Shown piece after piece: positions 48,058 to 62,107 of a stretch of DNA of 62,795 nt (position 1 is the stretch's first letter; every line of letters starts with the position of its first letter). The DNA is taken from positions 1 through 62,795 of the forward strand of contig CAZBFG010000002.1 of assembly GCA_964491155.1 (NCBI GenBank), written 5' to 3'. The position numbers were made by a program, and so were the translations under genes. Source of the stretch: an uncultured Bdellovibrionales bacterium. Lineage in GTDB: Bacteria; Patescibacteriota; Minisyncoccia; Moranbacterales; UBA1568. Under the pieces are notes generated by a model. That model did no database searches and was not told the origin of the DNA. It worked only from the letters and a program-made list of their open reading frames with translations.

Positions 48058-48073
48058 GCGGGAGCGACCGGAC
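48058..48073. repeat. left direct repeat (attL core), displaced tRNA-Asp 3' fragment
   Basis: GCGGGAGCGACCGGAC identical to 62033-62048; similarity continues (TCGAAC) after a 2-nt indel. Confidence 0.65.
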
Positions 48074-48186
48074 AATCGAACAGCTTCGCTCTGAGAACGC
48101 CTCCGTTCTCAGCGGACAAAAGTCCTGCTCTCCGTCCACGGGAAAACTCCCGATTTTCCCGACCCCTTTCCCGTTCTCGTCCGTCG

Positions 48187-48226
48187 TCCCAAAAGAAAAG
48201 CTCCGTCCACAAGGATAGAGCTTTTC
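48187..48226 (-). terminator. intrinsic terminator closing the island operon
   Basis: GAAAAGCTC (48195-48203) / GAGCTTTTC (48218-48226); minus strand continues TTTTGGG. Confidence 0.55.
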
Positions 48227-48374
48227 TTTGATGCGGGGACGACGGTACGCAATTGGGAACGATTACCGACCGGTTATTCTCGTGAAATGGCTCCAAAATA
48301 TCGGGAGGTTTGACTTACTAATCAGACGAATCGAAAAGCTCATGGCGTGCTAATTTCTGACTTTTGGGAGTAAT

Positions 48375-49193
48375 CTATAGCGAGTTGTAATCGTGACATT
48401 GAATCACACCCGGCGTATCTTTAATTTTCCCCCACTCAAAGTCATACCTTTTGTCATTAATCCAATCAGGGTACTTCACTCTAAAGTAACTTCCAACGGC
48501 TGGATCCATACCATCACCAATCCCTTCGACTATGAGGGACCCTTCTTGGTAAGAAAAATCTTCATTAAGGAATTGTGCTGACAGTAAAGCAACTAAACCA
48601 GAGGTTGCTTCAACTAAGTTTTTTAGATTTGCATGTTCAAACTTTGAGTGTATGTCATGCTTGGTTTCATTGTAATATTGGTACCAACTTTTGATTTCAC
48701 TTTTATCTTCACCTTTGTACTCACGGTAGTATTGATACCAATTAAGATCCGCTTTACCCCAGTTTTTAAATGGACAATAACGATCAAGTCCCAAGTGCTC
48801 GTTCGTATCCCATCTTGGCAATGAAACTTCATAACTAGACAACTGATGGGTTTTCTCTATAAGGCAGTAATCATGCATGTTCCAATCCTTCTCTTGTTTT
48901 TTTGAATAACCATTCTCTCGCAATATAGCCTTGCAATTAGCTTCTACTTCAATACAAACTCTAATAAATAGTTCATGAATTCTATATGAGTATGTTCTTT
49001 TATTTTTATCACTTGGTTCTACATACTCAAAGATTTTTTGTAAGTCATTTTGTATGATAAGGAAAGAGCGGATGTATTTTTCTGGTGAGTTCGCATACTC
49101 TGGGTGCTTTATGTACCTCGAGTTGCCACTGCTACTGTACGATCCATCCTTAAGTTGTCTAGCAGTTCTTCTGTACGGCTGTTCTATTGCCAT
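48375..49193 (-). CDS. hypothetical Trp/Tyr-rich protein (272 aa), last gene of the island operon
   Basis: long ORF in AT-rich DNA; internal duplicated WYQYY motif; possible HEPN-like helical core is speculation only. Confidence 0.65.
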   Translation of the reverse strand: MAIEQPYRRTARQLKDGSYSSSGNSRYIKHPEYANSPEKYIRSFLIIQNDLQKIFEYVEPSDKNKRTYSYRIHELFIRVCIEVEANCKAILRENGYSKKQEKDWNMHDYCLIEKTHQLSSYEVSLPRWDTNEHLGLDRYCPFKNWGKADLNWYQYYREYKGEDKSEIKSWYQYYNETKHDIHSKFEHANLKNLVEATSGLVALLSAQFLNEDFSYQEGSLIVEGIGDGMDPAVGSYFRVKYPDWINDKRYDFEWGKIKDTPGVIQCHDYNSL

Positions 49194-49277
49194 AGATTTT
49201 TATTGATGAGTGAAAACAAATCGACCCTCCCCTTTATTCTGCAATAATCGAATCTAAAAAAATATTTTTCGCGTTTC

Positions 49278-51731
49278 CTAATCTTCAAAACTTATTTTCC
49301 GCAACTGACTGTCTTCTGCGACTCGCTTTCGTTCTTCCATTTCACTGCTTTGGAGGTAGCCAATCATTTCTGTAACAAATTTCTTTACGCGTCTATTCTT
49401 TGATTCCTTGTATTTCTGAAGAATTTCTACCTTCCCCTTGTAGGCATCCGCAATCCCATATTCTCCAGATACCACGCCAGTAGCATACATAGTTGCACCA
49501 ATCTTTTTGTGAATCTTATCATTGTCTGTCCGCGCAATAATCTGCATACCGAGTTCAAAGTCTGCTTCGCCTATGCCCTCAATCACATACGCTACTCGAA
49601 GCAAGTCCTTATCATCACCTCTTGCTACGATGTCGGATAAAACTTGCCGCCTATCTACATTGATACTCTCCAAGAATCGACTAACTTCCCAGTTGTAAAG
49701 AGACCAGCCTAGAGTCATTTTTAGCACCCAACTTTTTACAGTAGCTGCAAGTCTTTTTTGATCCTCAGTCAACAATTTCTGAAGGTCCGGATTAAGATGA
49801 TAGGGTATTGCCTCAAACTCTTTCCGCTTCATTAATCGCTTTATGCCATGCGACTTGTCTTTTTTCTGGAGAAAAATAGTCCGTGAAATTCTTTTTTTAA
49901 AAAGATTCATTATGCAATCAAAGTCTTTCTCACAAAGCTCAATCAAAAATTCCTGTAGATGCCAATCTAAGTTAGGGGCCTCCACAACTTTGTTCAAAAG
50001 GTATTTCTTAAACGCCTTGCTCGCTAAAGAAAGATCAATCCACTTCCAGACTGTCGCAATGAACTGTAACGCTTGATAATGAATAGCGGCGTATTCTGCA
50101 TTATTTTGTATTTCTTCTCTTATAAGCCACTCTATCTTTCGTTTTTGTGGCTTAAAGTTAAAAGCAAGGGCGTGAAAAAGACGGTCATGCAAGTACCATA
50201 GTGAAGCATCTTTTCTCTTTGACTTCAGGAAACTAAATCTCTTTTTTTTGAAAACAATCTCCTCAAGAATATTCAACTCATTAAAGCGGAGCTTTCTTGG
50301 AACCTGTTCCTGTGCATGAGCAACAAGAGAATTACATATCCCACCCATAAGATAGATGGCTTGCTTCCTAATAATCAACTCAGAATATTTGTCCCACAGG
50401 TCCGATTTCTGCGTAACTTGAAAACCAATCAAAAAACTCTCAGCAAAGTTAATCAGGGGCTTATCTCGTTTAAATGCGTCACCTAACAACCCGTCGGCAA
50501 CTTCTGACGTTTCGGATGACAACATCTCAAGAAATCTCTTGAAATCACCCAATTTCCATTCCTCAATAACATCTTTCTGTTTTGCAAGAATATTTAATAC
50601 TTCTGTCCACTCTAATAGACCCTCATCTGATATTTTCGCAATAAGATCTCGCTGATCTTTTTCTCTTCGCTGTTTTGATTCTTCATATCCCTCTTCGCCT
50701 CGATATGCAGCACGACCGCCAATCATAGGTCGAACTTTTTCATAAAAAGAATCTTTCAGTATGTCTTCTCGTAGTTCTACTAGGTCAGATGGACGCCCTC
50801 TATCTGGCTTAGCAAGGTAATAAAACCTTTCTTCAATTTCTTCTACAACAGCAATATTTTCTCTAATGATATTTCCTGATTTATCAAAAATCATTTTCCG
50901 ATATATATTTGATAAATACTTTGCATCATCATCTAACATTCCTCTCAAACTGTCGGAATATTTAACATTACCTGGGCTACGAAACGCCTCTTCTAAAGCA
51001 GAAGAGAGTCGAAGCCTGACTTTTAAATCTGATGTTCTAGTGTATAGATCGTAGACAAAGTCTATAGTCTCCCTTCGTATTTTTTTAAGAAAATTAGTCG
51101 GATCAACTTGTGCAAAGTTCATTGTTAATGTCTTTTCATCCGACCAAGAAGAGCCCTCGACGGAAGAGTTCAGAAGCTCTTTTACAACTGCAAAAATAAA
51201 ATCAAGATTGGTTAAGCGTTTCTTCATGGGCCACTTCAAGATATAATCCAAAACTATTCTTTGGACACTATACCCAATCTTTGAATTAAACAAAACTGCA
51301 TAATCATACTTTGTAAGTTTTTTAAGTACCTCTAAAGCTTTTTCCTTAATCAACTCCTCCTCATTTGTGATAACCACCTCAAGTAGAGGTAAGACTTTCT
51401 TTGGAAGAATATACCGAATCTTAGATAGCAAACTAAGACCCTTAAGAACTATATCTGTTCTTGACTTACCTTCAAGCACTCCAAACTTTGATCTTGATTT
51501 TAGAACGGGAAAGGACGTCTGTAGAATATACTTAAAAATTTCAATAGTCTGTTCAGAGCCTTTATAGACAAATTCCTCTAATAGATCGAGTTTTTCATAA
51601 ATAACATCATTATTCTTTGGAGATTTGAGAATTTCATCCCTAAGTTCATCGGCAAACACAGACAGTTGTTTATCTGCCTTTTCATTTCCAAGAGCCATCA
51701 GTTGACACAATATTTGCTTTTGTATGCTCAT
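49278..51731 (-). CDS. large all-helical protein of unknown function (817 aa)
   Basis: 2.4-kb ORF in roughly 36% GC DNA; Leu/Lys/Glu-rich, repeat-like helices; no catalytic motif seen; ATGA overlap with the HNH gene. Confidence 0.8.
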   Translation of the reverse strand: MSIQKQILCQLMALGNEKADKQLSVFADELRDEILKSPKNNDVIYEKLDLLEEFVYKGSEQTIEIFKYILQTSFPVLKSRSKFGVLEGKSRTDIVLKGLSLLSKIRYILPKKVLPLLEVVITNEEELIKEKALEVLKKLTKYDYAVLFNSKIGYSVQRIVLDYILKWPMKKRLTNLDFIFAVVKELLNSSVEGSSWSDEKTLTMNFAQVDPTNFLKKIRRETIDFVYDLYTRTSDLKVRLRLSSALEEAFRSPGNVKYSDSLRGMLDDDAKYLSNIYRKMIFDKSGNIIRENIAVVEEIEERFYYLAKPDRGRPSDLVELREDILKDSFYEKVRPMIGGRAAYRGEEGYEESKQRREKDQRDLIAKISDEGLLEWTEVLNILAKQKDVIEEWKLGDFKRFLEMLSSETSEVADGLLGDAFKRDKPLINFAESFLIGFQVTQKSDLWDKYSELIIRKQAIYLMGGICNSLVAHAQEQVPRKLRFNELNILEEIVFKKKRFSFLKSKRKDASLWYLHDRLFHALAFNFKPQKRKIEWLIREEIQNNAEYAAIHYQALQFIATVWKWIDLSLASKAFKKYLLNKVVEAPNLDWHLQEFLIELCEKDFDCIMNLFKKRISRTIFLQKKDKSHGIKRLMKRKEFEAIPYHLNPDLQKLLTEDQKRLAATVKSWVLKMTLGWSLYNWEVSRFLESINVDRRQVLSDIVARGDDKDLLRVAYVIEGIGEADFELGMQIIARTDNDKIHKKIGATMYATGVVSGEYGIADAYKGKVEILQKYKESKNRRVKKFVTEMIGYLQSSEMEERKRVAEDSQLRKISFED

Positions 51732-52390
51732 ATCCGAGTAAACTTTTCGATTATTTCTTTGATATCCAACTTTCCAGATGTAATGAGTTCACTTAAGGCA
51801 ACTTTCGCATCAGACTTATCCTTAAGAGAAACCAGCCCTCCCGTAACGTCTACTAGTCCTAGTTGAATAAGTTGATTTAGTATTGCTTCCTCTTCTTCAG
51901 AGGTAGCGTCTAACAATATACGCACCGTTTGTCTGACGGATTCACCGCGCTGGTCTATATAAAACTCCGGAATTAAGTAAATAAAACATTGATAAAAAAT
52001 AATCTTGTCTGAGTTTCTAGTAAGCATCTCATGATACTTTAACTGCAATGTTGCAAAGTCACTCGACACAGTAATTTTTTCTGAATTCGTTAAATAAAAA
52101 ACGACTTTTTGCAATTTTAGCAGCTCTTCACTTGCTTGCTTAGCACGATTTTTATACTCACGAAAATCATTGGGGGATATCTTGCCATCATGAGCCATTC
52201 CATGACAGTTACTACAAATACACACAATATTGTCGGAGACATTATTCTCCCTATTACCATCAATATGGTGCAACGTTAGAGAGATCCTTTCTTTGCAAAC
52301 TAGACAAGAGTGGTTCGCCTCAACCTTAATTTCCCTTTGTAAAGTTGATGGGATTTTCTTCCTTGGTTTCGTGTATTTCTTTGGTGACAT
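51728..52390 (-). CDS. HNH endonuclease with C-terminal helical (wHTH-like) extension
   Basis: CLVC..HHIDGNRENN..N..CSNCHGMAH (aa 29-67). Confidence 0.8.
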   Translation of the reverse strand: MSPKKYTKPRKKIPSTLQREIKVEANHSCLVCKERISLTLHHIDGNRENNVSDNIVCICSNCHGMAHDGKISPNDFREYKNRAKQASEELLKLQKVVFYLTNSEKITVSSDFATLQLKYHEMLTRNSDKIIFYQCFIYLIPEFYIDQRGESVRQTVRILLDATSEEEEAILNQLIQLGLVDVTGGLVSLKDKSDAKVALSELITSGKLDIKEIIEKFTRI

Positions 52391-52415
52391 ATAAGCTGAC
52401 GCTCATTCTATAAAA

Positions 52416-55400
52416 CTAACGTGTACTTTCCGAGACATGTTTCTTTATTATGAAAAAAATCTCCATCAAAATATTCTGCTTTCGGTGCCTTAAGTCCTCC
52501 CGGTTAGTTGCTAAATCCAAATCTGTACTCGCATCGGTGTCAGTAGATTTCTTTAAGTAATCCGAGGAGAAATGTATCGCCCCAAACTTTACCGTGGCTT
52601 GATTGGCTAAATTATATAGTGCAACAGCACGGGCAATCTTGGAGGATTCAATATCTATAGTATCGATTTTTTTCTTGGAAAAGCTTTCGCGTTGAGCAAA
52701 AGTTTCTTCCATTGTTGTAGATACAGAAACATGAGCTAAAGAAGAGTATTCCTTAATATATTCCATGGAGTTACTTATTTTGGAACCTATACTCATAATT
52801 TCGTTCCTTCTTCCTACGACAAATGATTTTGGTATGTATATTCTTTTATATACCTCGCGAGGAGATTTTAAAGTGCCAACCTTGCCTATGTGTAAAACTT
52901 CAGATGCATTTAGCTGGCATATTTTCTGCGCTAAAAAATCACTTATATCACCCCAGTGGCCGTAGTTTGCCTCAAGACAGTTTATTACCTTGCCATTTTT
53001 AGAAATAAATCTCGTAGCCGAGTAATACTTATTTTGGTGAGTACTCAGCACGGAAAAATCAGGATCTTTCTCAAGCTGGTTTTTAAAGAAGGTGCTATAA
53101 CCAAGAATCACTACGTCATTCTTGATAATCATTCTATCATCCAAGCCTGTCCATTTATCTATCTTTTTTTCAGCTAATGGATAAGCGTAGGCGCTCACTG
53201 AGACTGATAGATTTCTTAAATAATACTTCAGCATGGAAGCGTAGTGGATCAGCAGATCCCGACCCGGAGTAACACAACAAACAAGAAGCTTTTTCGAACC
53301 TCTCTCTGCTACCAAGAACATCGGCCTCAAACTGTTGCTATTATCGGTTTTCCCCTTACTAAAGTGAATTACTTCCACTATATTGAATCCTAGACTCAAC
53401 TCGTTTAGAACTTTAAGATCTGGATATATGCCATGAACCTCAACACTATCTATCTCCTTAACCCTGCTCTCTATTAGTTCTATCGGCAGTTTAGACTGTA
53501 TGTATTTTTCCAGTGAAATGGTCATCGTATGATCGCTCACGTAGGGCGTATCGAAATTCTTATCTGGAACTCTGATTACCTTGCTGTATATATCCAGACG
53601 TTCTAGTGAAAAGTACTTATTAATAAAGTTAGTTATCGAATCCGTAAATTCAAAATTTGGTATCTGATCTTTTGTGATCCACTTAAAAGAGAGCGATTCT
53701 TCATTGATTCTTATTTTCTTGTCTTCTACAACAGTCGAGGTATAGTCATAAAAATGATAGTGGTTACCGCTCTTCGCAGTATAGTCACGCACTCCCAAAA
53801 GATTGATATGCTCAACCATTAGCCCGGTTTCCTCAAAAACCTCACGTACAAATGCTTCAATAGGAGCTTCATTCATACCGAGCTTGCCGCCAGGTACGAC
53901 CCATTTCCCATGGTCTTTGCCCTTGCTTGTCTGGAGTATTAAAAATTGTCCCGTTGAGTTGTAGATGAGCCCTCCTGAGGCAAGAATTTTATAGGTCTCC
54001 TTAGGATTGAAAAGTCTTCTGTAATATGACAAAAAAGCACGGAAGTTTTTTGTATCGGTCGGGATTTGAAAACTTATTTTTGACTTAATGGCAAATCTTT
54101 TTCGATAAGATTCTCGAACCGTTTCGAAACCATCCTGACCGTTGCAGTAGTCTGGCAAATCACTATTGCTTCTCATTAGTAACCAGGCACTTATAACTTT
54201 TGCGATTCTACCACAACCATCAACAAAAACATGTCCACAAAAATCAATATTCCATTCAATCCAGGCGGCCAAATCCGTTGGTGCAGTTTCGGGATTTTTA
54301 ATCTTCTTATGGAACTGATTAATAAATGATTTGTAGAATTTTTTTACGTACTGAGTATCGACATAGAAATATTTATGCGAGTTGCTCCCACTCCTTATCA
54401 TCAACTTTTCGTTAGTCACAATCCCCCGATTGACCATCTTTGCTATCTGATCGATGAAATCTTGAAGCACCTGGGGTGATAGCAAGTGCAGGCTCTTATT
54501 ATCGTATGCAAAGTCAAAAGCCTGGATTACATTACTTCTCGTAATATCGGCGAGGTCCTTCTTTGGCACGAGCAAATTAACAAGCATCGGCTTGTCCTTC
54601 GAGGCAGAAACGTTCAGTTCTCCTCCAAATGTTCTGCTTGTATTTTCAATATTACGCAAGAGCCTGTTTAGGTATTCCTCCTTAGAAAAGCGTGGTGTGT
54701 AACTTCTGCGCGAATGCTTATCAAGAGCAGACTGAAGCGTCTCTTTATTAGAGAGTACGGTATCCTTTAGACTTTCAGCGTTTGCTATATATCGAACCTC
54801 AGATTCCTGCGCTATATTTTTCTTATTACTTTTGTAATCCCTTTTAAGACTGACAACAACTGGGTGCCCATTGCTATTGATAAGTACGGTAGAGTAATCT
54901 TTCACCCATCTTGAGTCGATTGATTTTTCCAAAAAAGACAGTCGCCCCTCTTCAATCGCCCTATAACTTTTATAGAGGGCCGAGAAGTCTGGGGTGGGAT
55001 CACTCGGGTATACTCCAGTTCTCTCAAGGACTCGTAGTGCCGATGTTATGAAATCAACTTTCAAGTCAAAGATAGTAACGGGCAGCTTTCTCTGAGCAGC
55101 ATCAACTAATAGATCATCAAGATCAGAAGGATCTTGCATTCTCTTATCAATGACGTATCCCAAGTTAGATTCCCTGACAAGCTTAAGAATTTTCTCGCCA
55201 ATAACAGACGCCTCCTCATGAAAGAGGTATCCGGAAAATGCGTGTCCCGTTACATTGTGGGTATTTAAAAGCAGTTGTCTTTTTACAGCATCGGTATTTA
55301 ACACGCCATCAAAAGCCTCCAACGTCTTTATATTTTGACGGAGAAGACTTTGGATAAAAGAGGATTTCCCAGACGCCACAGATCCTCTCACACAGTAGAT

Positions 55401-55961
55401 TCCTCTTCCTAGTTTTTTTGATCGCACTACTTTCTGTGACAGAATCTCGGCACTTTTATAACAATGGCGTATCAGTTCGTCGTGAACCCGAACTCTCTCA
55501 CTGATCCAATTTTTCTCATCATTGAGGCATCTTCGTAGGGTGACCTTGTCTATGTTATGAGTATCAAAGTTTGTAAAAACATCATAGGACTTTAACTCTG
55601 ATTTTGCTACCGAAAGCAGTAAGCACCTTAAGGAAACACTGTGGGTCTTACCCTGATGGCTCTCATTATCGTGTAGCTTGATCTGATTCAGGACTCTTTT
55701 TAGACTGACAATATCCATGCCTGTCACCTCAACCTCGAGAGAGGAGTTAATGAACACCAGATACTTTTCACTCACTTTCAGCGCCTGCAATACAAGTGGC
55801 TTCAAAAACTTTCTATCAGCATGCGCGTTTATAGAACGCACGGCACTTTCTATATCAAGACTGTCAGTGCTCAACAAACTTACCAGTATACTGGCAGCGC
55901 CTTCCTGATTGAATTGCGAGAGCTTCTCTTTTACGATATTCGCGTTCATAAAAAACATCAA
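52416..55961 (-). CDS. 1181-aa multidomain protein: unknown N-domain + zeta-toxin-like P-loop kinase + Fic + Nudix + PNP/MTAN-like nucleosidase fold
   Basis: Walker A GSVASGKS (aa 193-200) with LNTD (221-224); Fic motif HVFVDGCGRIAK (577-588); exact Nudix box G692-x5-E-x7-REVFEETGL (to 714); HIGKVGT (1024-1030), DIESSKIA (1103-1110), HFSSD (1130-1134) as in PNP_UDP enzymes; track start is TTG 55961, ATG at 55958. Confidence 0.85.
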   Translation of the reverse strand: MMFFMNANIVKEKLSQFNQEGAASILVSLLSTDSLDIESAVRSINAHADRKFLKPLVLQALKVSEKYLVFINSSLEVEVTGMDIVSLKRVLNQIKLHDNESHQGKTHSVSLRCLLLSVAKSELKSYDVFTNFDTHNIDKVTLRRCLNDEKNWISERVRVHDELIRHCYKSAEILSQKVVRSKKLGRGIYCVRGSVASGKSSFIQSLLRQNIKTLEAFDGVLNTDAVKRQLLLNTHNVTGHAFSGYLFHEEASVIGEKILKLVRESNLGYVIDKRMQDPSDLDDLLVDAAQRKLPVTIFDLKVDFITSALRVLERTGVYPSDPTPDFSALYKSYRAIEEGRLSFLEKSIDSRWVKDYSTVLINSNGHPVVVSLKRDYKSNKKNIAQESEVRYIANAESLKDTVLSNKETLQSALDKHSRRSYTPRFSKEEYLNRLLRNIENTSRTFGGELNVSASKDKPMLVNLLVPKKDLADITRSNVIQAFDFAYDNKSLHLLSPQVLQDFIDQIAKMVNRGIVTNEKLMIRSGSNSHKYFYVDTQYVKKFYKSFINQFHKKIKNPETAPTDLAAWIEWNIDFCGHVFVDGCGRIAKVISAWLLMRSNSDLPDYCNGQDGFETVRESYRKRFAIKSKISFQIPTDTKNFRAFLSYYRRLFNPKETYKILASGGLIYNSTGQFLILQTSKGKDHGKWVVPGGKLGMNEAPIEAFVREVFEETGLMVEHINLLGVRDYTAKSGNHYHFYDYTSTVVEDKKIRINEESLSFKWITKDQIPNFEFTDSITNFINKYFSLERLDIYSKVIRVPDKNFDTPYVSDHTMTISLEKYIQSKLPIELIESRVKEIDSVEVHGIYPDLKVLNELSLGFNIVEVIHFSKGKTDNSNSLRPMFLVAERGSKKLLVCCVTPGRDLLIHYASMLKYYLRNLSVSVSAYAYPLAEKKIDKWTGLDDRMIIKNDVVILGYSTFFKNQLEKDPDFSVLSTHQNKYYSATRFISKNGKVINCLEANYGHWGDISDFLAQKICQLNASEVLHIGKVGTLKSPREVYKRIYIPKSFVVGRRNEIMSIGSKISNSMEYIKEYSSLAHVSVSTTMEETFAQRESFSKKKIDTIDIESSKIARAVALYNLANQATVKFGAIHFSSDYLKKSTDTDASTDLDLATNREDLRHRKQNILMEIFFIIKKHVSESTR

Positions 55962-56500
55962 GCCAGTATATCAAGCAGCTCATGAATTTCTTTGATCGAC
56001 TTTAGGTCTTGAGGAATCTCATCTGGCATTTTTGAAACGCTATTTTCTATGAAAAAAGCATCTATACCGATATTTTTTGCCGCGAGGTAGTCATAGAAGT
56101 AACTGTCCCCGACCATAAGAGCATCATTCTTACTGAGACCTAAAGAAGCCAGGATTTCTAGCATAATCGCGGCTTTCCCATTCGGATCGTCTCCACTAGA
56201 AGATCTGTGCGCGTAGAACAGACTGCTCAGCCCGAAGTACTCGAGCCTTTCTTTAATCTCTTTGATGGCAATTTCCTCAGCGTAGGGGTTGGCCGAAAGC
56301 ACTACAAGGTATATTCCCCTTTCCCTCAGAGCCTCCAGGGTTTCTTTGGTCCGCGGCGTCAACTCCAAATGCTCCAAATAATTATCTTTCGTTTCTGGAT
56401 CATGGTAAATCCAGTGGGGTTTTTGCGTGCGCTTTGTCGCCTTGGGATACCAAAGTGTTCCGTCACCATCGAGAAACACTATTTTCTTCTTCGTTTTCAT
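55958..56500 (-). CDS. HAD-superfamily phosphatase (IIIA-like)
   Basis: motif I FLDGDGT (D11, D13), motif II LSAN, Lys109, motif IV GDSYFYD. Confidence 0.8.
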   Translation of the reverse strand: MKTKKKIVFLDGDGTLWYPKATKRTQKPHWIYHDPETKDNYLEHLELTPRTKETLEALRERGIYLVVLSANPYAEEIAIKEIKERLEYFGLSSLFYAHRSSSGDDPNGKAAIMLEILASLGLSKNDALMVGDSYFYDYLAAKNIGIDAFFIENSVSKMPDEIPQDLKSIKEIHELLDILA

Positions 56501-56523
56501 ACGCTTACTCTTGTTCAGATAGT

Positions 56524-57129
56524 TTAAAAAATCTCCAACTCCTCAACTATTTTTCCTTCCGATTTCAATCTTTCCAAATCAGCTTCAAGATTATTCTTTA
56601 TTGCCCTCACTCTTTCGAGTTGAGTAAGTCGGTAAGTATTCGTATTGCGAGACTCGATTCTTTTCTTGAGTTCTTCCTCAGAAATCTTTAGATAAATAAC
56701 GACATCAGAGTCTACGAGTGTACTTCCAAAAGCAGGGCGTCCAGCTTCGATACTTATTTGGCTCTGAGTATACCCCGTTAACAGTTCGGTCGTTTCTCTC
56801 AGGTAAGCTTGGTGTTCATCGCTGGCTGGATCGAACTCTTTTTCAGAATATTTCACAGTCTTTCTATCGCCATCAATGAACATGAACGGGTGCTCATGGT
56901 GCAGTACATGTCTTTTAAAATCCTCTGGCATACCATCAAACACCGCGTCTAAATCGACGCCTGCCTTGATGTGTTGGAGGATAGTACTCTTTCCGACGCT
57001 TGGTGGCGCAAGCACCAACACCCTCTTATCTTTATATTTTTCTAGTAGTGATTCAAGAGTCTCTGCGTGTCCTTTTCCCTCCTTTGGGTTTAGGTGCATG
57101 TCTCTAAAATCTTTTTTCTCAAACGACAT
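56524..57129 (-). CDS. P-loop nucleotide/nucleoside kinase-like protein
   Basis: Walker A APPSVGKST (aa 41-49); VVIYLKISEEELKKRIESR lid-like segment typical of NMP kinases. Confidence 0.7.
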   Translation of the reverse strand: MSFEKKDFRDMHLNPKEGKGHAETLESLLEKYKDKRVLVLAPPSVGKSTILQHIKAGVDLDAVFDGMPEDFKRHVLHHEHPFMFIDGDRKTVKYSEKEFDPASDEHQAYLRETTELLTGYTQSQISIEAGRPAFGSTLVDSDVVIYLKISEEELKKRIESRNTNTYRLTQLERVRAIKNNLEADLERLKSEGKIVEELEIF

Positions 57130-57132
57130 ATA

Positions 57133-57333
57133 TCATTTCTCATTGTTAAGAATTTTCTCGAGATCTTCTTTTCGATACCGTCGATCCTTTCTCGTTCCAA
57201 AACGAATGGCCTTTAGAATTCCCTTATTGTCCCAATTCCTTAAAGTGTTGGGATGGCAATGTAAAAGCGTACAGGCCTCAGCAAGAGTGAGAATATCGGG
57301 TATTTCCTTTGTTTTCACGGATTGTTTTTTCAT
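57133..57333 (-). CDS. MerR/excisionase-family helix-turn-helix protein
   Basis: LTLAEACTLLHCHPNTLRNWDNKGILKAIRFG..RRYRKEDLEKIL. Confidence 0.75.
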   Translation of the reverse strand: MKKQSVKTKEIPDILTLAEACTLLHCHPNTLRNWDNKGILKAIRFGTRKDRRYRKEDLEKILNNEK

Positions 57334-57381
57334 AAAATATGACTTACCATGAGTTTACAACTTCCAAGAGAATAAGCAAGT

Positions 57382-58392
57382 ATGCCTAGAGTCATTGATC
57401 GGCATGTCCAGCTCATCGTTCAATCGAATGATTGTTGTTTACTGACTTTTTCTGAAATGAAAACACAATTTGCACGCGCATGGGACTGCATGGAGTTTAC
57501 TCGAAACCCAGAGGATTTTCTCTATCTCCACCCCGATAGAACCGTGTTTACTAAAAGAGAGCCGTGGACCAAGTACTACTCATACGCCGATAATACGCCC
57601 CTCTACCACCAAAAGGTTCGACTTCTCCATATTCACAAAGATGGTCGTGTTTATAACGACCCTCTCTTCCTGTTCTCCTTAAAAAATAAACCTCTTTTTT
57701 TGCGGCTTATCAATTCCAAAAATAGAAGCTCCCTCAAAAATCTTGTCGGGCTGGTAAAGGATTTCTGTATTTTTCCAAACGATCAAGATAAGGCATGGTT
57801 AGCACAGCAATATAAAAACACTATCGGTGCAGAAAACTATAGTTTTCTTTTTCCCATGCATACCCCACTTCCTCAAGAAAAAAAACAGGAAGAGGACCGT
57901 ATCATGGAGACAATTAACAAAGTAAACCTAGACTATCTCTGGGAGAAAAAGCTCTACCTTCAAAAATTTGTCCGGTCTTACCGCAAAGGAGAAATGAAAA
58001 TGCGTGACCTCTCGACGCTCTATCAACACATGACTCAAGTTTCTGAAGTATTTCTCGACGAGCAAAACTTCAATCTCAAAAAGATTCACAAAGACCTAGA
58101 TGCTGAGGGTGATGGCACAATTTCAGATACAAGAAACTTTAACGATATTATCGGTGAGAAAAAAGTACAGAATGTAAAAACACTGGTCACAGCGTATCGG
58201 GTATATGGCCATTTTGCGCTTTGCTGCCTTGAATTGTTCCTTACGATAAAAAATGAAAGGGGTATCGCCCAATGCAAGGCATGTAAGGAATACTACGAAA
58301 AAAGCCACGGCAGTCAGGAATATTGCGATCCCGAATGCCAAAAAAATGGCGCCGCAGAAAGAAGCCGGAGATATAGGGCAAGCATAAAATAA
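57382..58392 (+). CDS. hypothetical island protein with C-terminal Cys cluster
   Basis: CKACKEYY..YCDPEC zinc-ribbon-like end; divergent from the HTH gene; terminator follows. Confidence 0.65.
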   Translation: MPRVIDRHVQLIVQSNDCCLLTFSEMKTQFARAWDCMEFTRNPEDFLYLHPDRTVFTKREPWTKYYSYADNTPLYHQKVRLLHIHKDGRVYNDPLFLFSLKNKPLFLRLINSKNRSSLKNLVGLVKDFCIFPNDQDKAWLAQQYKNTIGAENYSFLFPMHTPLPQEKKQEEDRIMETINKVNLDYLWEKKLYLQKFVRSYRKGEMKMRDLSTLYQHMTQVSEVFLDEQNFNLKKIHKDLDAEGDGTISDTRNFNDIIGEKKVQNVKTLVTAYRVYGHFALCCLELFLTIKNERGIAQCKACKEYYEKSHGSQEYCDPECQKNGAAERSRRYRASIK

Positions 58393-58424
58393 ACACTCTG
58401 ACCCGAGACCGTCACGAGAAAAAT

Positions 58425-58444
58425 CACGCGAAAGCGTGTTTTTT
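58425..58444 (+). terminator. intrinsic terminator
   Basis: CACGC GAAA GCGTG followed by T6. Confidence 0.7.
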
Positions 58445-58481
58445 AATTTTGCCTCAGTATCTATGTATACGATTTACTGTC

Positions 58482-58673
58482 ATGCAAAATTCTTTCTCTC
58501 CAAGTCTGGTAGCGCGAGCACAACGGATTTTTGAAAAAAGGTCTGGGCGTGTTGTGAGTGAGGAAGAGACAGAAATATATCTAGCCACCCTAGCCAAGCT
58601 CGGGCTCCTCGCCCTGCGGGTTATAGAAACAGCTCAGTCCAAAAAAAATGCCAAGAATAGTACCCATCGATAA
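58482..58673 (+). CDS. hypothetical small protein
   Basis: ORF only; start at MQNSF. Confidence 0.4.
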   Translation: MQNSFSPSLVARAQRIFEKRSGRVVSEEETEIYLATLAKLGLLALRVIETAQSKKNAKNSTHR

Positions 58674-58911
58674 AAATGCGCGGATAGTGGTCGAGCCGCT
58701 CAATTTCACCCTGCAATTTCGCAGAAAATCTAAAACGCGAAATTCGTGGCGTACGGATGGATATTTCCCAGATCTGATATCTCTCATCGCTTATTACATA
58801 AACATGTCCCCACAACGCGCTGACAACGCAATGAAAAGCATTGATGGTCTCGTTCAGACCATCAAAAACGCTGAAGAAAATATAATACGCATGATTAATT
58901 CTCAAAAATAA
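58648..58911 (+). CDS. hypothetical small protein
   Basis: ORF only. Confidence 0.45.
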   Translation: MPRIVPIDKNARIVVEPLNFTLQFRRKSKTRNSWRTDGYFPDLISLIAYYINMSPQRADNAMKSIDGLVQTIKNAEENIIRMINSQK

Positions 58912-58913
58912 CT

Positions 58914-59246
58914 ATGGAACCACTAACAGGAATGCTCTCAAAAAGAGTCCAACAAATAAGCGAACGAGACGAAGCGGTACGGAAAATCCTAGAACAGTAC
59001 CCGAAAGAATTAGTCGATGAAGCCCTAAGGCGGATAGACAAAACACTAGCACAAGAAATTCTCGGGATGAAGAAGTGTCCGCTCATCAAAAATGCTAGCT
59101 GGGATTGCGGATCTGGCCTACGAAAAGGTGAAGAGACCTGGTGTACCAATATCCAATACATCAATTGCGGTGCCTTTGATAAATATCTCATCTGGTATAT
59201 GACCAAAAAAACAAAAGAAAAAAGAACCAAAAAAGAAAAGATATAG
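58914..59246 (+). CDS. hypothetical small protein with Lys-rich tail
   Basis: ORF only; starts 2 nt after the previous stop. Confidence 0.5.
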   Translation: MEPLTGMLSKRVQQISERDEAVRKILEQYPKELVDEALRRIDKTLAQEILGMKKCPLIKNASWDCGSGLRKGEETWCTNIQYINCGAFDKYLIWYMTKKTKEKRTKKEKI

Positions 59247-59359
59247 TACCTATACCTATCTACCTTCTCTCTTCTCTTTTCTTCAGAGTACTTATATATA
59301 TGTATATACCTGAAAATGAAAATCATTGAAAAAATTGGAAAATACGGAACCAAAGAAAG

Positions 59360-59389
59360 TTGTCGCACGACAGGCACGACCAATAAAAT
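59360..59389 (+). promoter_or_regulatory. sigma70-like promoter in front of the GC-rich non-coding segment
   Basis: TTGTCG (59360-59365), 18-nt spacer, TAAAAT (59384-59389). Confidence 0.3.
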
Positions 59390-59394
59390 GAGAA

Positions 59395-60377
59395 CTTGAA
59401 AAATCGTGAAAGGGAAAATCGCAGAGAATCGCCCTATCAGTCCTTTAGAGAGAGTGTTCGAGCGGCGCCCGCAAGGAGCCACCCTACCAACAGTCGAGGC
59501 AGGGGCCGGCCCGACGCGCAGAGGAAGCGGCTCCGGCATGGGGCGCGGAAAGAAATCCAAAGAGCATGACACTCCCCCGACCCGCCACCGCCTCTCCACC
59601 ACGCGTCTGCATAATCTGTTATTAGGCGATGTCTCGCCTCGAGAAGGTCGCCTAATAATGGTCCTGATTATGCGATGCTTGGTGAGAGTGCGGCTTTGCC
59701 CTCGTTTATCAGGGAAGGGTGGCCGGGGGGTATCCACCCTGATATCTACGAGGGCACGGGTCGGAACAGAAAGAGTGTCATTCCCTTTTCCGCGCAATGA
59801 GAAAGAGTGACTTCGTCACACGATATGAAAAGCGTGCCGTGATGCAGGTGGGCCCGACGGTCTGTAATCGGATCCGGCGGGTCGCCCTGCAAGGCCACGG
59901 CACACCGTATTGGCTGCTCTACCGTTTGATAGCAGGAGTCGGCTGGTGGCCGGGTGGGTTTCGGTACCGGACGTGCCCACCGCTACGAGCCAGACAGTCC
60001 CGATTGCGGGTCTGTCTGGTGAGAGGGGCACGAGGTACAGAGATTCCGCACGGTGACCGGCTGTTCTTTGGGCAAAGCGTCGGGTGGCACTACGTTTGAG
60101 GAGGATGGAGCGTTTGTTTGGTAGGAGCCAAGCCCACACCGACCGAAGGGAGGCGAGCATAGCGAGAGAGGAGCGGAAGCGACGTGGGCGGTGAAGTTGC
60201 AGGAACGTTTGTTAGGAGCTATTTGGAAGAACCAAGAAATATGCAGTATACTGACTTTGGACACAATTTCAATGTTTCGGAAGAGGAGCAACTTTTATTA
60301 GTTGTTCCGGTGAAAGGACGACTTTCGCCACAGCTTCCGAAAGGGAATTGTGTCCAGGCGAGGTCGTCCTTTTATTT
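59395..60377 (+). ncRNA. candidate large structured RNA (family unknown)
   Basis: GC-rich segment (42 of 60 on line 59941) in AT-rich island; only Arg/Pro/Gly-rich junk ORFs on both strands; nested perfect hairpins at 59619-59658, 59699-59754 and 59990-60019; long-range pair 59834-59841/59895-59902; terminator-like two-tier stem plus T-tract at 60313-60377. Confidence 0.45.
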
Positions 60378-60384
60378 GGGCATT

Positions 60385-60516
60385 ATGAATCTTTCCAATC
60401 CAAAATTTCGATACAAGGGATCCAAGCCGTTCTGGTTGTGGACCACTGGTGAATGGTTTTTTTATACCACTATCTTTCTTATCGGCTGGATCATTATCAT
60501 TTTGAATGATCTATGA
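60385..60516 (+). CDS. small hydrophobic peptide overlapping the recombinase start
   Basis: MNLSNPKFRYKGSKPFWLWTTGEWFFYTTIFLIGWIIIILNDL; stop overlaps the recombinase ATG (ATGA); an upstream ATG at 60241 would cross the terminator-like hairpin. Confidence 0.35.
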   Translation: MNLSNPKFRYKGSKPFWLWTTGEWFFYTTIFLIGWIIIILNDL

Positions 60517-62072
60517 ACTACATCATTTACGCGAGAAAATCGACCGAGAGTGAAGACAGGCAATCTTTGTCTATCCAATCGCAGATTATTGAAATGCAAG
60601 AAATTGCTCAGCGCGAAGGCGTGCGTGTGGTGAAGATTTTTCAAGAATCAAAATCCGCCAAAGAACCAGGACGACCGGTCTTTGCGGAGATGATCAAATA
60701 TATTCAATCGGGAAAAGCACAGGGAGTACTGTGCTGGAAGATTGATCGACTGGCACGCAACCCTGTCGATGAAGGATTGGTGAAATGGCTCTTGCAAAAA
60801 GAGGTTATCAAACAAATCCGCACATCTGACCGGGAATATAATCCCGACGACAATGTGGTGATTGCGAGTATTGAGTTTAGCATGGCCAATCAGTACATCC
60901 GCGACTTGAGCAAAAACGTGAAGCGAGGATTAGCGGAAAAAGTTCGTCGTGGTGAATACCCGGGGTGCCAGTCACTCGGATATACTCGTGATCCAAAAAC
61001 AAAGATCCTTCAGATTGATCCGGCTACCGCTCCCTACGTCCGCACTGCCTTTGAACTCTACGCCACGCACCACTGGTCTATCCTCAGGCTTGCTGACAAA
61101 CTCTACGAGGATGGCTTACGTTCTCGAAGTGGCAGGAAACTGGGGAAATCACGCCTGCACCGCATTCTTTCCAATCCCCTCTACTGCGGACTCTTTGAAT
61201 GGAACGGACAAACACACAAAGGCGTCCACCCTCCTCTCGTTTCCAAAAGACTCTTCGACGAAGCCCAGCAGAAACTCTTTCCCGAACGCTACCTCACCCG
61301 CAAAACAAAGCGTTCATTTCTCTTCCGCGGATTAGCGATATGTGGCGAGTGTGGGTTGAAAATAACAGCGGAAATAAAAAAGGGACATACGTATTACCGC
61401 TGTACCAAATCCCATGGGACACAACACTGCTCACAGAAATACCTGCGAGAAGAAGAACTGATCAAGGCCATCGAGAAAGAATCCAAAAAAGTCCACTTTG
61501 ACGATGAGATACTCGACCTCATTTTCGAAGCATCCAAAGAACAGCTCGCCCAAATATCAGGCGAGACCACTGAACGCAAAGACGAGCTAGCCGCTTTGCT
61601 CATCACAGTACAAAAGCGAAGGGAATCGCTTATCGAGAAGTTTATCGATAACGCTATCCCAAAAGAAATTTACGATCGGAAGTACTCGGAATCTATCGAA
61701 GAAGAAGCAAGTATAGAAGAGAGGCTCCAACAATTCGACCACGACAACGGAGATCCTCTCACAGACTTGAAGACTATCATCGGCTTTGTCAGAACAGCGC
61801 ACGATATCTTCAATAAAGGCGACGATTCTATCAAAAAAGAAATAGCCTCTCTTTTATCTTCGAACTTCGCTCTCAAGGACCAAGAAATCGCTTATTTCAA
61901 CCTCAATGAGCCTTTCTCTTGGTTGGCAGAAGATGCCAGCGTCCTGTTGTCCCAAAAAACCACCTTCGAACCACTACTAACCCGCATGGATAAAAGAAAA
62001 ACAGCCTCCCATGAGACTGTATTTTCCAATTGGCGGGAGCGACCGGACTCGAACCGGCGACCTACTGCGTGA
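60513..62072 (+). CDS. large serine recombinase / integrase
   Basis: resolvase catalytic domain (IIYARKSTESEDRQSLSIQSQ, DRLARN), recombinase domain, zinc ribbon CGECG..YYRC, coiled-coil; last 14 codons read into the tRNA-Asp gene. Confidence 0.9.
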   Translation: MNYIIYARKSTESEDRQSLSIQSQIIEMQEIAQREGVRVVKIFQESKSAKEPGRPVFAEMIKYIQSGKAQGVLCWKIDRLARNPVDEGLVKWLLQKEVIKQIRTSDREYNPDDNVVIASIEFSMANQYIRDLSKNVKRGLAEKVRRGEYPGCQSLGYTRDPKTKILQIDPATAPYVRTAFELYATHHWSILRLADKLYEDGLRSRSGRKLGKSRLHRILSNPLYCGLFEWNGQTHKGVHPPLVSKRLFDEAQQKLFPERYLTRKTKRSFLFRGLAICGECGLKITAEIKKGHTYYRCTKSHGTQHCSQKYLREEELIKAIEKESKKVHFDDEILDLIFEASKEQLAQISGETTERKDELAALLITVQKRRESLIEKFIDNAIPKEIYDRKYSESIEEEASIEERLQQFDHDNGDPLTDLKTIIGFVRTAHDIFNKGDDSIKKEIASLLSSNFALKDQEIAYFNLNEPFSWLAEDASVLLSQKTTFEPLLTRMDKRKTASHETVFSNWRERPDSNRRPTA

Positions 62073-62107
62073 CAGGCAGTCGCTCTAACCAGCTGAGCTA
62101 CGCCCCC
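62031..62107 (-). tRNA. tRNA-Asp (anticodon GTC), CCA encoded
   Basis: hand-folded cloverleaf: acceptor GGGGGCG/CGCTCCC, D stem GCTC/GAGC, anticodon stem ACTGC/GCAGT with loop CTGTCAC, T arm GCCGG TTCGAGT CCGGT. Confidence 0.9.
62033..62048. repeat. right direct repeat (attR core) inside tRNA-Asp
   Basis: GCGGGAGCGACCGGAC identical to 48058-48073. Confidence 0.65.

Follow-up and report, generated by a model that had tools for sequence, protein, structure and literature searches.

A candidate large structured RNA and a switch-like leader upstream of the serine recombinase gene of an integrated island in a Patescibacteria genome

We analyzed a stretch of 62,795 nucleotides (nt) (GenBank assembly GCA_964491155.1, contig CAZBFG010000002.1; hereafter the window) from an uncultured member of the Patescibacteria. 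It carries an island integrated in a tRNA-Asp gene, and the last gene of the island codes for a large serine recombinase. Upstream of that gene lies a G+C-rich segment of about 1 kb. Our favored reading, to which we assign a probability of about 60%, is that this segment consists of two adjacent RNA elements on the plus strand. The first, RNA A (about 59390-60225), would be the gene for a G+C-rich, three-domain structured non-coding RNA of ~840 nt, belonging to a previously uncatalogued family. The second, leader B (about 60258-60377), would be a separate leader in front of the recombinase operon. The division rests on the loci of the recombinase relatives, which split the region: leader B was found at 34 loci, and the family of the large upstream RNA is limited to about 11. 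Those relatives comprised 80 loci retrieved from GTDB genomes by means of the recombinase and 11 loci from nine exact-protein look-ups. A first inspection of the letters of this DNA (here the sequence-only reading) had proposed one transcribed structured RNA. The segment is indeed a structured, non-coding region, conserved and probably of the plus strand, but it is not one RNA of one family, since leader B is separate and much more widespread.

The G+C content of the segment is 58.9% over 59390-60225 and 56.5% over 59395-60377, compared with 39.7% in the island outside 59390-60225 and 50.1% in the host flank. The local peak reported previously, 42 G or C among the 60 bases of 59941-60000, is exact. 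We folded a 991-nt stretch and found a minimum free energy (MFE) of -458 kcal/mol for the plus strand, compared with -370 ± 9 kcal/mol for dinucleotide shuffles (z = -9.7); the minus strand gave -383 kcal/mol (z = -8.0). Our scan of open reading frames (ORFs) agreed that there are only overlapping, Arg/Pro/Gly-rich frames on both strands. Coding potential was assessed by comparing the window with the homologous DNA of five related loci (L081, L001, L004, L082, and L084). In every long ORF the three codon positions were hit equally by substitutions (e.g., 13/12/12 and 32/28/23), insertions or deletions of 1, 2, 4, and 5 nt were frequent and broke the frames, and stops occurred in nearly every frame of the homologous DNA. 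The even substitutions, the frame-breaking indels, and the stops rule out protein coding and show that the segment is non-coding, with no conserved ORF. The sequence-only reading had named codon-like rather than compensatory change in homologues as an observation that would refute it; the codon positions proved even and the helices compensatory.

RNA A and its 5' edge were delineated as follows.
59360 to 59389, plus strand: candidate promoter of RNA A, TTGTCG-18-TAAAAT, overlapping the palindrome TGTCGCACGACA
59390 to 59542, plus strand: 5' region, variable
59543 to 59795, plus strand: domain 1, closed by GCGCGGAAAG / UUUUCCGCGC
59796 to 60062, plus strand: domain 2, optional, including the helix 59834-59841 / 59896-59903 and the hairpin 59990-60019
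60083 to 60223, plus strand: domain 3, with a core junction at 60128-60195 and the closing stem GCCCAC/GUGGGC

Close homologues of RNA A were present in L081 (full length), L001, L004, L082/L083, L084, and part of L002, and divergent yet recognizable ones in a clade made up of L014, L209, L210, and L211. All the hairpins picked out by eye earlier were found in place, apart from CACGGCAC, which is shifted rightward by one base, to 59896-59903. Domain 1 contains a long hairpin (59597-59684) and a three-tier hairpin (59699-59754). Among five sequences its 94 consensus pairs were 97% paired, compared with 34-47% when the partners were slid along the alignment, and 12 pairs showed compensatory changes, compared with 0-1 in the slid controls. 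For the long hairpin, 9 of 32 pairs were compensatory in a set of eight sequences that included the L014 clade and represented at least four lineages.

Domain 2 is absent from L082 and different in L084; in four sequences it comprises 90 pairs, seven of them compensatory. Its hairpin at 59990-60019 changes from CCAGAC.../...GUCUGG to GCGAGC.../...GCUCGC by compensatory substitutions. The core of domain 3 could be aligned in 11 sequences and was 96% paired, with four of the six pairs of the closing stem compensatory. Two mini-hairpins of this domain follow the pattern C/G-GA-GC(loop)GC-GA-G/C, and a GNRA tetraloop (GGAA) closes the second; in other lineages ordinary Watson-Crick hairpins take their place. 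The domain also has a purine-rich strand, AGAGGAGCGGAAGCGAC, that is almost invariant. Mini-hairpins, GNRA loops, and purine-rich strands of this kind typify RNAs that adopt a defined tertiary fold. RNA A of L004 is 87% identical to that of the window, whereas the recombinases are only 62% identical. This contrast suggests either that the RNA is under stronger constraint than the protein or that the RNA module has been exchanged by recombination.

The TTGTCG-18-TAAAAT element listed in the sequence-only reading is present at 59360-59389, and we tentatively call it a promoter. The overlapping palindrome TGTCGCACGACA (59361-59372, TGTCG-N2-CGACA) is kept at the 5' edge of RNA A in all close relatives (L081, L082, L084, and L001); the L082 version is GCTGTCGTACGACAGC (~2695-2710). 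It looks like an operator for a dimeric DNA-binding protein. The 5' region that follows includes about 330 nt of extra structured sequence in L001, L082, and L084. In these relatives the AT-rich spacer between the upstream gene p110 and the RNA (L082 2560-2650; L084/L001) also contains direct repeats of ~20 nt, GTATTGTATATATACTCTATCT twice and GAAAGATAAGTAAGTA twice, which resemble iterons. The window's own spacer is without them, and a search of the window for iterons or tandem repeats found none of note.

Leader B and its promoter have the following parts.
60223 to 60252, plus strand: promoter of leader B, TTGGAA-18-TATACT, with -35 and -10 positions conserved in about 30 loci
About 60258 to 60377, plus strand: leader B, 118 nt
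60259-60268 / 60346-60355, plus strand: helix P1
60275-60283 / 60334-60342, plus strand: helix P2
60285-60292 / 60301-60308, plus strand: helix P3
60309-60316 / 60322-60329, plus strand: helix P4
60316-60329 / 60357-60369, plus strand: alternative terminator T, followed by UUUUAUUU at 60370-60377

Searches with nhmmer and a covariance model detected the leader in its 34 sequences. In each it lies ~130 nt before the recombinase start and is followed directly by a small membrane-protein ORF overlapping that start. Three weaker matches occupied the equivalent position in more distant loci. In loci that are otherwise unrelated upstream, a -35 box (TTGGAA/CTGGAAA) is followed after 17-18 nt by TATAnT, often preceded by TG, and 6-7 nt further on by GGACAC. 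Transcription is predicted to start at about 60259, the first base of P1. The conservation of both boxes just upstream of P1 indicates that leader B is a promoter-proximal unit starting at that helix. The closing two-tier stem at 60313-60372, which had been assigned to the same domain architecture as the upstream hairpins, belongs to a separate leader with its own promoter and much wider conservation.

Covariation in the leader was assessed on a structure-blind MAFFT alignment of 28 sequences. P1, P2, P3, and T together were 91.4% paired, compared with 39-48% with the partners slid, and 23 of 40 pairs were compensatory. All cells of P1 (100%) and 95.8% of those of T were paired, with compensatory changes at 5 of 10 and 7 of 13 pairs, respectively, and a conserved U-tract lies behind T. 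P4, a hairpin GAAAGG(GNRA)CCUUUC, is the 5' half of T, and the two share nucleotides. P1 and P2 enclose this 5' half, and the 3' half of T lies 1-3 nt past P1, so that the four-way junction (P1-P4) and the terminator folds cross topologically. The terminator can be extended (ACAG/UUGU, UUCC/GGAA) with the 3' strands of P1 and P2, and this extension covaries too. In constrained folding, the junction was the MFE structure of all 28 sequences, 4-26 kcal/mol below the best terminator fold. The plus strand of the leader is settled by the U-tract terminator, the promoter, and the G-U cells (109 on the plus strand, 16 on the minus strand).

By its predicted anatomy, leader B is a terminator/antiterminator leader, both folds of which covary. 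It sits between a conserved promoter and the ORF that begins at 60385, and an intrinsic terminator and a mutually exclusive alternative fold are both conserved. From this arrangement we infer an attenuation switch that would gate the operon of the small ORF and the recombinase. Leader B resembles riboswitch-type and protein-dependent attenuators in lying between promoter and ORF and in sequestering the 5' half of the terminator in a junction. It differs from them in matching no Rfam class, in the margin of 4-26 kcal/mol by which the junction is the MFE fold, and in controlling a serine integrase gene. It also differs in that the exclusion of the terminator by P1 and P2 is purely topological, with no nucleotides in common. 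We rejected a lysine riboswitch as the identity of leader B: the match scored 16.7 bits against a gathering threshold of 30 (E = 0.14) and covered 72 nt of a 182-position model. The GCGGAAGC loop of RNA A was considered as a mimic of P2 and discarded, P2 covarying between loci while the loop of A is constant. A 34-nt long-range complementarity between 59355-59388 and 60293-60326 is present in the window, but it is not conserved in L081, and we treated it as chance.

We then compared the position of these elements across clades of the element family. The gene order is kept: p336, p87, p110, a gap, leader B, the small ORF, and the recombinase. The gap measures 0.8-1.5 kb and was ORF-poor in all 20 loci examined. 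Its fold was scored in 20 of 28 loci; over its last 600 nt z ranged from -3 to -22 in most of them and was weaker in two or three, whereas controls taken 1.5 kb further upstream mostly gave z of about -1, with a few clearly negative. AT-rich clades that target tRNA-Trp or tRNA-Gln have their own nested conserved structure, in which 27 of 50 predicted pairs are compensatory and which is likely another uncatalogued RNA family. This element lies ~350 nt upstream of the leader in L017, L024, L015, L021, L020, L013, L016, L022, L025, and L019 and includes a conserved UUUGCCUGUCUGG...CCAGUCUGGCAAAU hairpin. A model of domain 3 detected none of the RNA families in other clades. Thus, the slot is conserved and the RNA sequence family is clade specific.

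Comparisons with known RNA families gave no assignment. Rfam was run on the window and 15 relatives at the gathering thresholds, on 59100-60600 at E <= 10, and on L082 at E <= 1. At gathering, the window and the relatives yielded tRNAs only, in keeping with the earlier failure to recognize a known family by eye, and the permissive thresholds added nothing but noise. GOLLD, ROOL, OLE, and raiA had no match at E <= 10 in 59100-60600 or at E <= 1 in L082. Group I and group II introns, RNase P RNA, and tmRNA were likewise without a match (covariance models, and ARAGORN for tmRNA). A blastn search of phage and plasmid records returned nothing, and IMG/VR gave nothing relevant when queried with the recombinase, its alignment, and an RNA pattern. 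A metagenome scan with the 22-nt pattern GCGGNAGCGANGNGGGCGGTGA produced 120 matches, all of them chance occurrences in GC-rich contigs and none homologous by nhmmer. Literature searches turned up no description of either RNA A or leader B.

RNA A is similar to GOLLD and ROOL in measuring at least 500 nt, in having several domains of which some are optional, in being borne by a mobile element, and in adjoining tRNA genes. Unlike them, it matches no model at E <= 10, its host belongs to the Patescibacteria, and the element is not recognized as viral: the island, which lies by tRNA-Asp/Met, yielded no phage structural genes and no matches in viral collections. The closeness to tRNA genes had been offered as a hint to the class of RNA. 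The adjacency is real, but it stems from integration into a tRNA gene, unlike that of GOLLD and ROOL. RNA A and leader B also recall the integrase-associated motifs int-alpA, Lacto-int, and STAXI of Rfam and the Breaker laboratory, in that a conserved structured RNA lies by a mobile-element recombinase gene. Those are short Rfam motifs that accompany tyrosine integrases, and none of them scored on this DNA.

The foremost alternative, which we nevertheless regard as unlikely, is a single RNA of ~1 kb that starts from 59360-59389, has the leader as its 3' domain and terminator, and contains 60223-60252 as mere RNA sequence. It agrees with the lack of an intrinsic terminator between A and B and with the full-length MFE structure, which keeps the leader fold intact. 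It does not account for the conservation of TTGGAA-17/18-TATAnT, with GGACAC 6-7 nt on, at about 30 loci with unrelated sequence upstream, nor for the occurrence of the leader in 34 loci compared with about 11 for the A family. The one-RNA and two-element readings are likely compatible, through overlapping long and short transcripts. As no terminator separates the two elements, transcripts of A most likely end at the terminator of B or are gated by it. They would probably run into the leader, which partly rescues the ~1-kb RNA ending at CCUUUUAUUU of the sequence-only reading.

Alternatively, the hairpins might act in single-stranded DNA or in a replication origin, as single-strand initiation (ssi)- or single-strand origin (sso)-like signals near rep-like genes. 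p87 matches the 'replication initiation protein' family phrog_154 (E = 1.8e-7), and HTH_36 proteins take its place in relatives. L082, L084, and L001 have direct repeats in their AT-rich spacer, the sequence families vary by clade, as origins do, and mini-hairpins of the GCGAAGC type are known as very stable DNA hairpins at phage origins. We consider this explanation improbable all the same. Domain scans of the island proteins found no HUH Rep or relaxase, and the window has no iterons. Structures of ~840-1200 nt with closing helices 250 nt apart far exceed known sso and ssi signals, RNA A being 3-5 times longer than the hairpin regions of ~150-300 nt at single-strand origins. Moreover, G-U-rich helices and GNRA and tandem G-A motifs suit RNA better, and the adjacent leader has rightward transcription signals.

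The plus strand is favored for RNA A. As a single sequence it is 75 kcal/mol more stable than the minus strand, and RNAalifold consensus energies were better for the plus strand in every alignment (-131 v -119, -134 v -102, and -37 v -28). G-U cells and conserved G-U pairs are also about twice as frequent on the plus strand (G-U cells 44 v 23, 39 v 22, and 24 v 0). The comparison was a symmetric G-U count; a test restricted to Watson-Crick consensus pairs gave no discrimination. These results argue against a minus-strand RNA that would start at 60272-60245 and end at a hairpin at 59380-59362, which we judge quite improbable. The start would coincide with the best promoter-like match of the region (10/12), a stem with a T-rich tail completes the bracketing of A, and the fold of this strand has the z-score of -8.0 given above. 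However, the 'terminator' is unconserved even in L081, the -35 box falls in a variable loop of the leader, and the -10 box is merely the palindromic TATA of the plus-strand promoter. The site itself, TTGAAA-16-TATACT, is the best sigma-70-like match in the region and overlaps the leader promoter and P1. Transcription from this site would enter the large RNA in antisense; the -35 of the site is unconserved in relatives.

A guide or bridge-type RNA that steers the recombinase to its tRNA target would fit the position of A next to the recombinase gene and the fact that clades differ both in tRNA target (Asp, Gln, Trp, Ser, or Val) and in upstream RNA. omega RNA/HEARO (with IscB) and the IS110 bridge RNA are likewise structured RNAs beside the enzyme that moves the element, and the sequence-only reading had drawn the analogy. 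It found no support. The island has no IscB, TnpB, or IS110-type DEDD recombinase, and no model of these RNAs matched. The only HNH protein (220 amino acids, 51728-52390) is encoded 7 kb away and gave a 22-bit local match against a cut-off of 175. Complementarity to the tRNA or attachment site was not above control: across 24 loci the longest matches to the locus's own target were 6-11 nt, compared with means of 7-9 and maxima to 13 for unrelated tRNAs. Furthermore, the recombinase has the full protein DNA-recognition architecture of large serine integrases, and loci that target tRNA-Asp carry at least three unrelated upstream sequence families. A guide role is therefore very unlikely. Least credible of all is a captured G+C-rich host gene fragment or decayed pseudogene with chance hairpins, a check raised from the outset, which would explain the 59% G+C above the island level and the long overlapping ORFs but is ruled out by the lack of codon-position bias or a conserved frame and by the compensatory changes, and is countered by the z-score, the fixed position in many genomes, and the domain-wise modularity.

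Several points weigh against the two-element reading, mostly as it concerns RNA A. Covariation in A comes from few related sequences (4-11, from about four lineages), which also served to derive the structures. The -10 box and the spacing of the A promoter are conserved only in L081, and the promoter is convincing only in the window and L081; the ends and the plus strand of A are themselves what we infer. The minus strand still forms 22-23 G-U cells in the A domains in two of the three alignments, and A is bracketed on that strand by the promoter-like site and the terminator-like hairpin described above. As for leader B, the junction fold is so much more stable in the folding models that a simple equilibrium switch is unlikely.

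The elements are set in the following context.
48074 to 62048: island of ~14 kb with ~40% G+C, inside a chromosome of ~50% G+C
48058 to 48073, no strand assigned: core of the left attachment site (attL), direct repeat GCGGGAGCGACCGGAC, with an identical 16-nt copy at 62033-62048
57382 to 59246, plus strand: upstream gene module p336, p87, and p110, conserved in the element family
60385 to 60516, plus strand: small hydrophobic ORF of 43 amino acids, whose stop overlaps the recombinase ATG (ATGA), with protein-level conservation in relatives
60513 to 62072, plus strand: large serine recombinase, the last island gene, with Resolvase, Recombinase, and Zn_ribbon_recom domains
62031 to 62107, minus strand: tRNA-Asp(GTC), the integration target, which holds the right copy of the repeat

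The perfect 16-nt direct repeat GCGGGAGCGACCGGAC marks both ends of the island (48058-48073 and 62033-62048), and its right copy is the 3' end of tRNA-Asp(GTC). At the left end the G+C content falls from ~50% to ~40% near 48058-48073. A third copy, 75% identical, is found at 48233-48248, 175 nt inward of the left end; the stretch 48074-48250 that contains it is G+C-rich and may be the scar of an earlier integration. The last ~13 codons of the recombinase gene overlap tRNA-Asp. In all 24 related loci with a callable downstream tRNA, the 3' end of the recombinase gene falls within an oppositely oriented tRNA gene, which differs by clade and is specific for Asp, Gln, Trp, Ser, or Val. The C terminus of the protein is thus partly encoded by tRNA-derived sequence, e.g., ...RDSNRRP. 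Those homologues of the recombinase that bear names are annotated as Candidatus Moranbacteria or Patescibacteria.

The product of the 43-codon ORF is single-transmembrane-like. In most relatives the recombinase is preceded by a small ORF of one of two sequence types (RYKGxKPxW... and ...LSDSPADL...). It is unusual for a membrane peptide to be coupled translationally to an integrase. Of the upstream module, p110 is Cys-rich with a basic tail, and p87 is the winged-helix protein of the phrog_154 family mentioned above. p336 (57382-58392, 336 amino acids) has four invariant cysteines in a C-terminal zinc ribbon and matched no Pfam family. Its alignment-based structure model reached a predicted local distance difference test (pLDDT) score of 81, compared with a poor single-sequence model, and structure comparison yielded nothing beyond local zinc-ribbon matches and a marginal one to a DUF1470 structure. 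The cargo of the island lies on the minus strand (52416-55961, 51728-52390, and 55958-57129). It codes for a protein of 1181 amino acids, an HNH endonuclease, a HAD phosphatase, and a dNK/AAA-like kinase; the 1181-residue protein combines a zeta-toxin/AvrRxo1-like kinase region (NF041405, E = 5e-29) with a NUDIX domain. This cargo may be a nucleotide-targeting defense or toxin module.

With regard to function, RNA A would be a stable RNA made by the element, and we propose with low confidence that it works for the maintenance and recombination module, either as a folded scaffold or as a regulator, and not as a guide. It would be transcribed rightward, probably from the operator-controlled promoter, and end at or be gated by the leader terminator. 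In leader B, the four-way junction would bury the 5' half of the terminator, making read-through the default, and a factor occupying the 5' strands, or a kinetic effect, would be needed for T to form. The switch would respond to a ligand, a protein, or an RNA and determine if polymerase continues into the small ORF and the recombinase gene.

RNA A is a new family of large ornate mobile-element RNA and leader B a new family of terminator/antiterminator leader; both kinds are known. In bacteria, few structured RNAs exceed ~500 nt, and each new class has been informative, as ribozymes, guides, and RNA cages illustrate. Large serine integrases are genome-engineering tools, so that a conserved RNA switch in front of one would be a natural regulatory part worth testing, and so would a large RNA that is always encoded beside such an integrase. 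A bolder reading, possible but doubtful, is that each island of the family carries a fast-evolving ornate RNA of ~1 kb in a fixed slot as a functional component of the element, coupled to a switch leader, itself of a new class, by which the recombinase is gated. With the zinc-finger and basic proteins encoded just upstream, the RNA would then control excision, integration, or copy number, for example as a cofactor or scaffold. If true, this would be a recombinase-associated large RNA system without a described counterpart. In the genome-reduced and poorly studied Patescibacteria, a kilobase of conserved non-coding sequence is in itself conspicuous.

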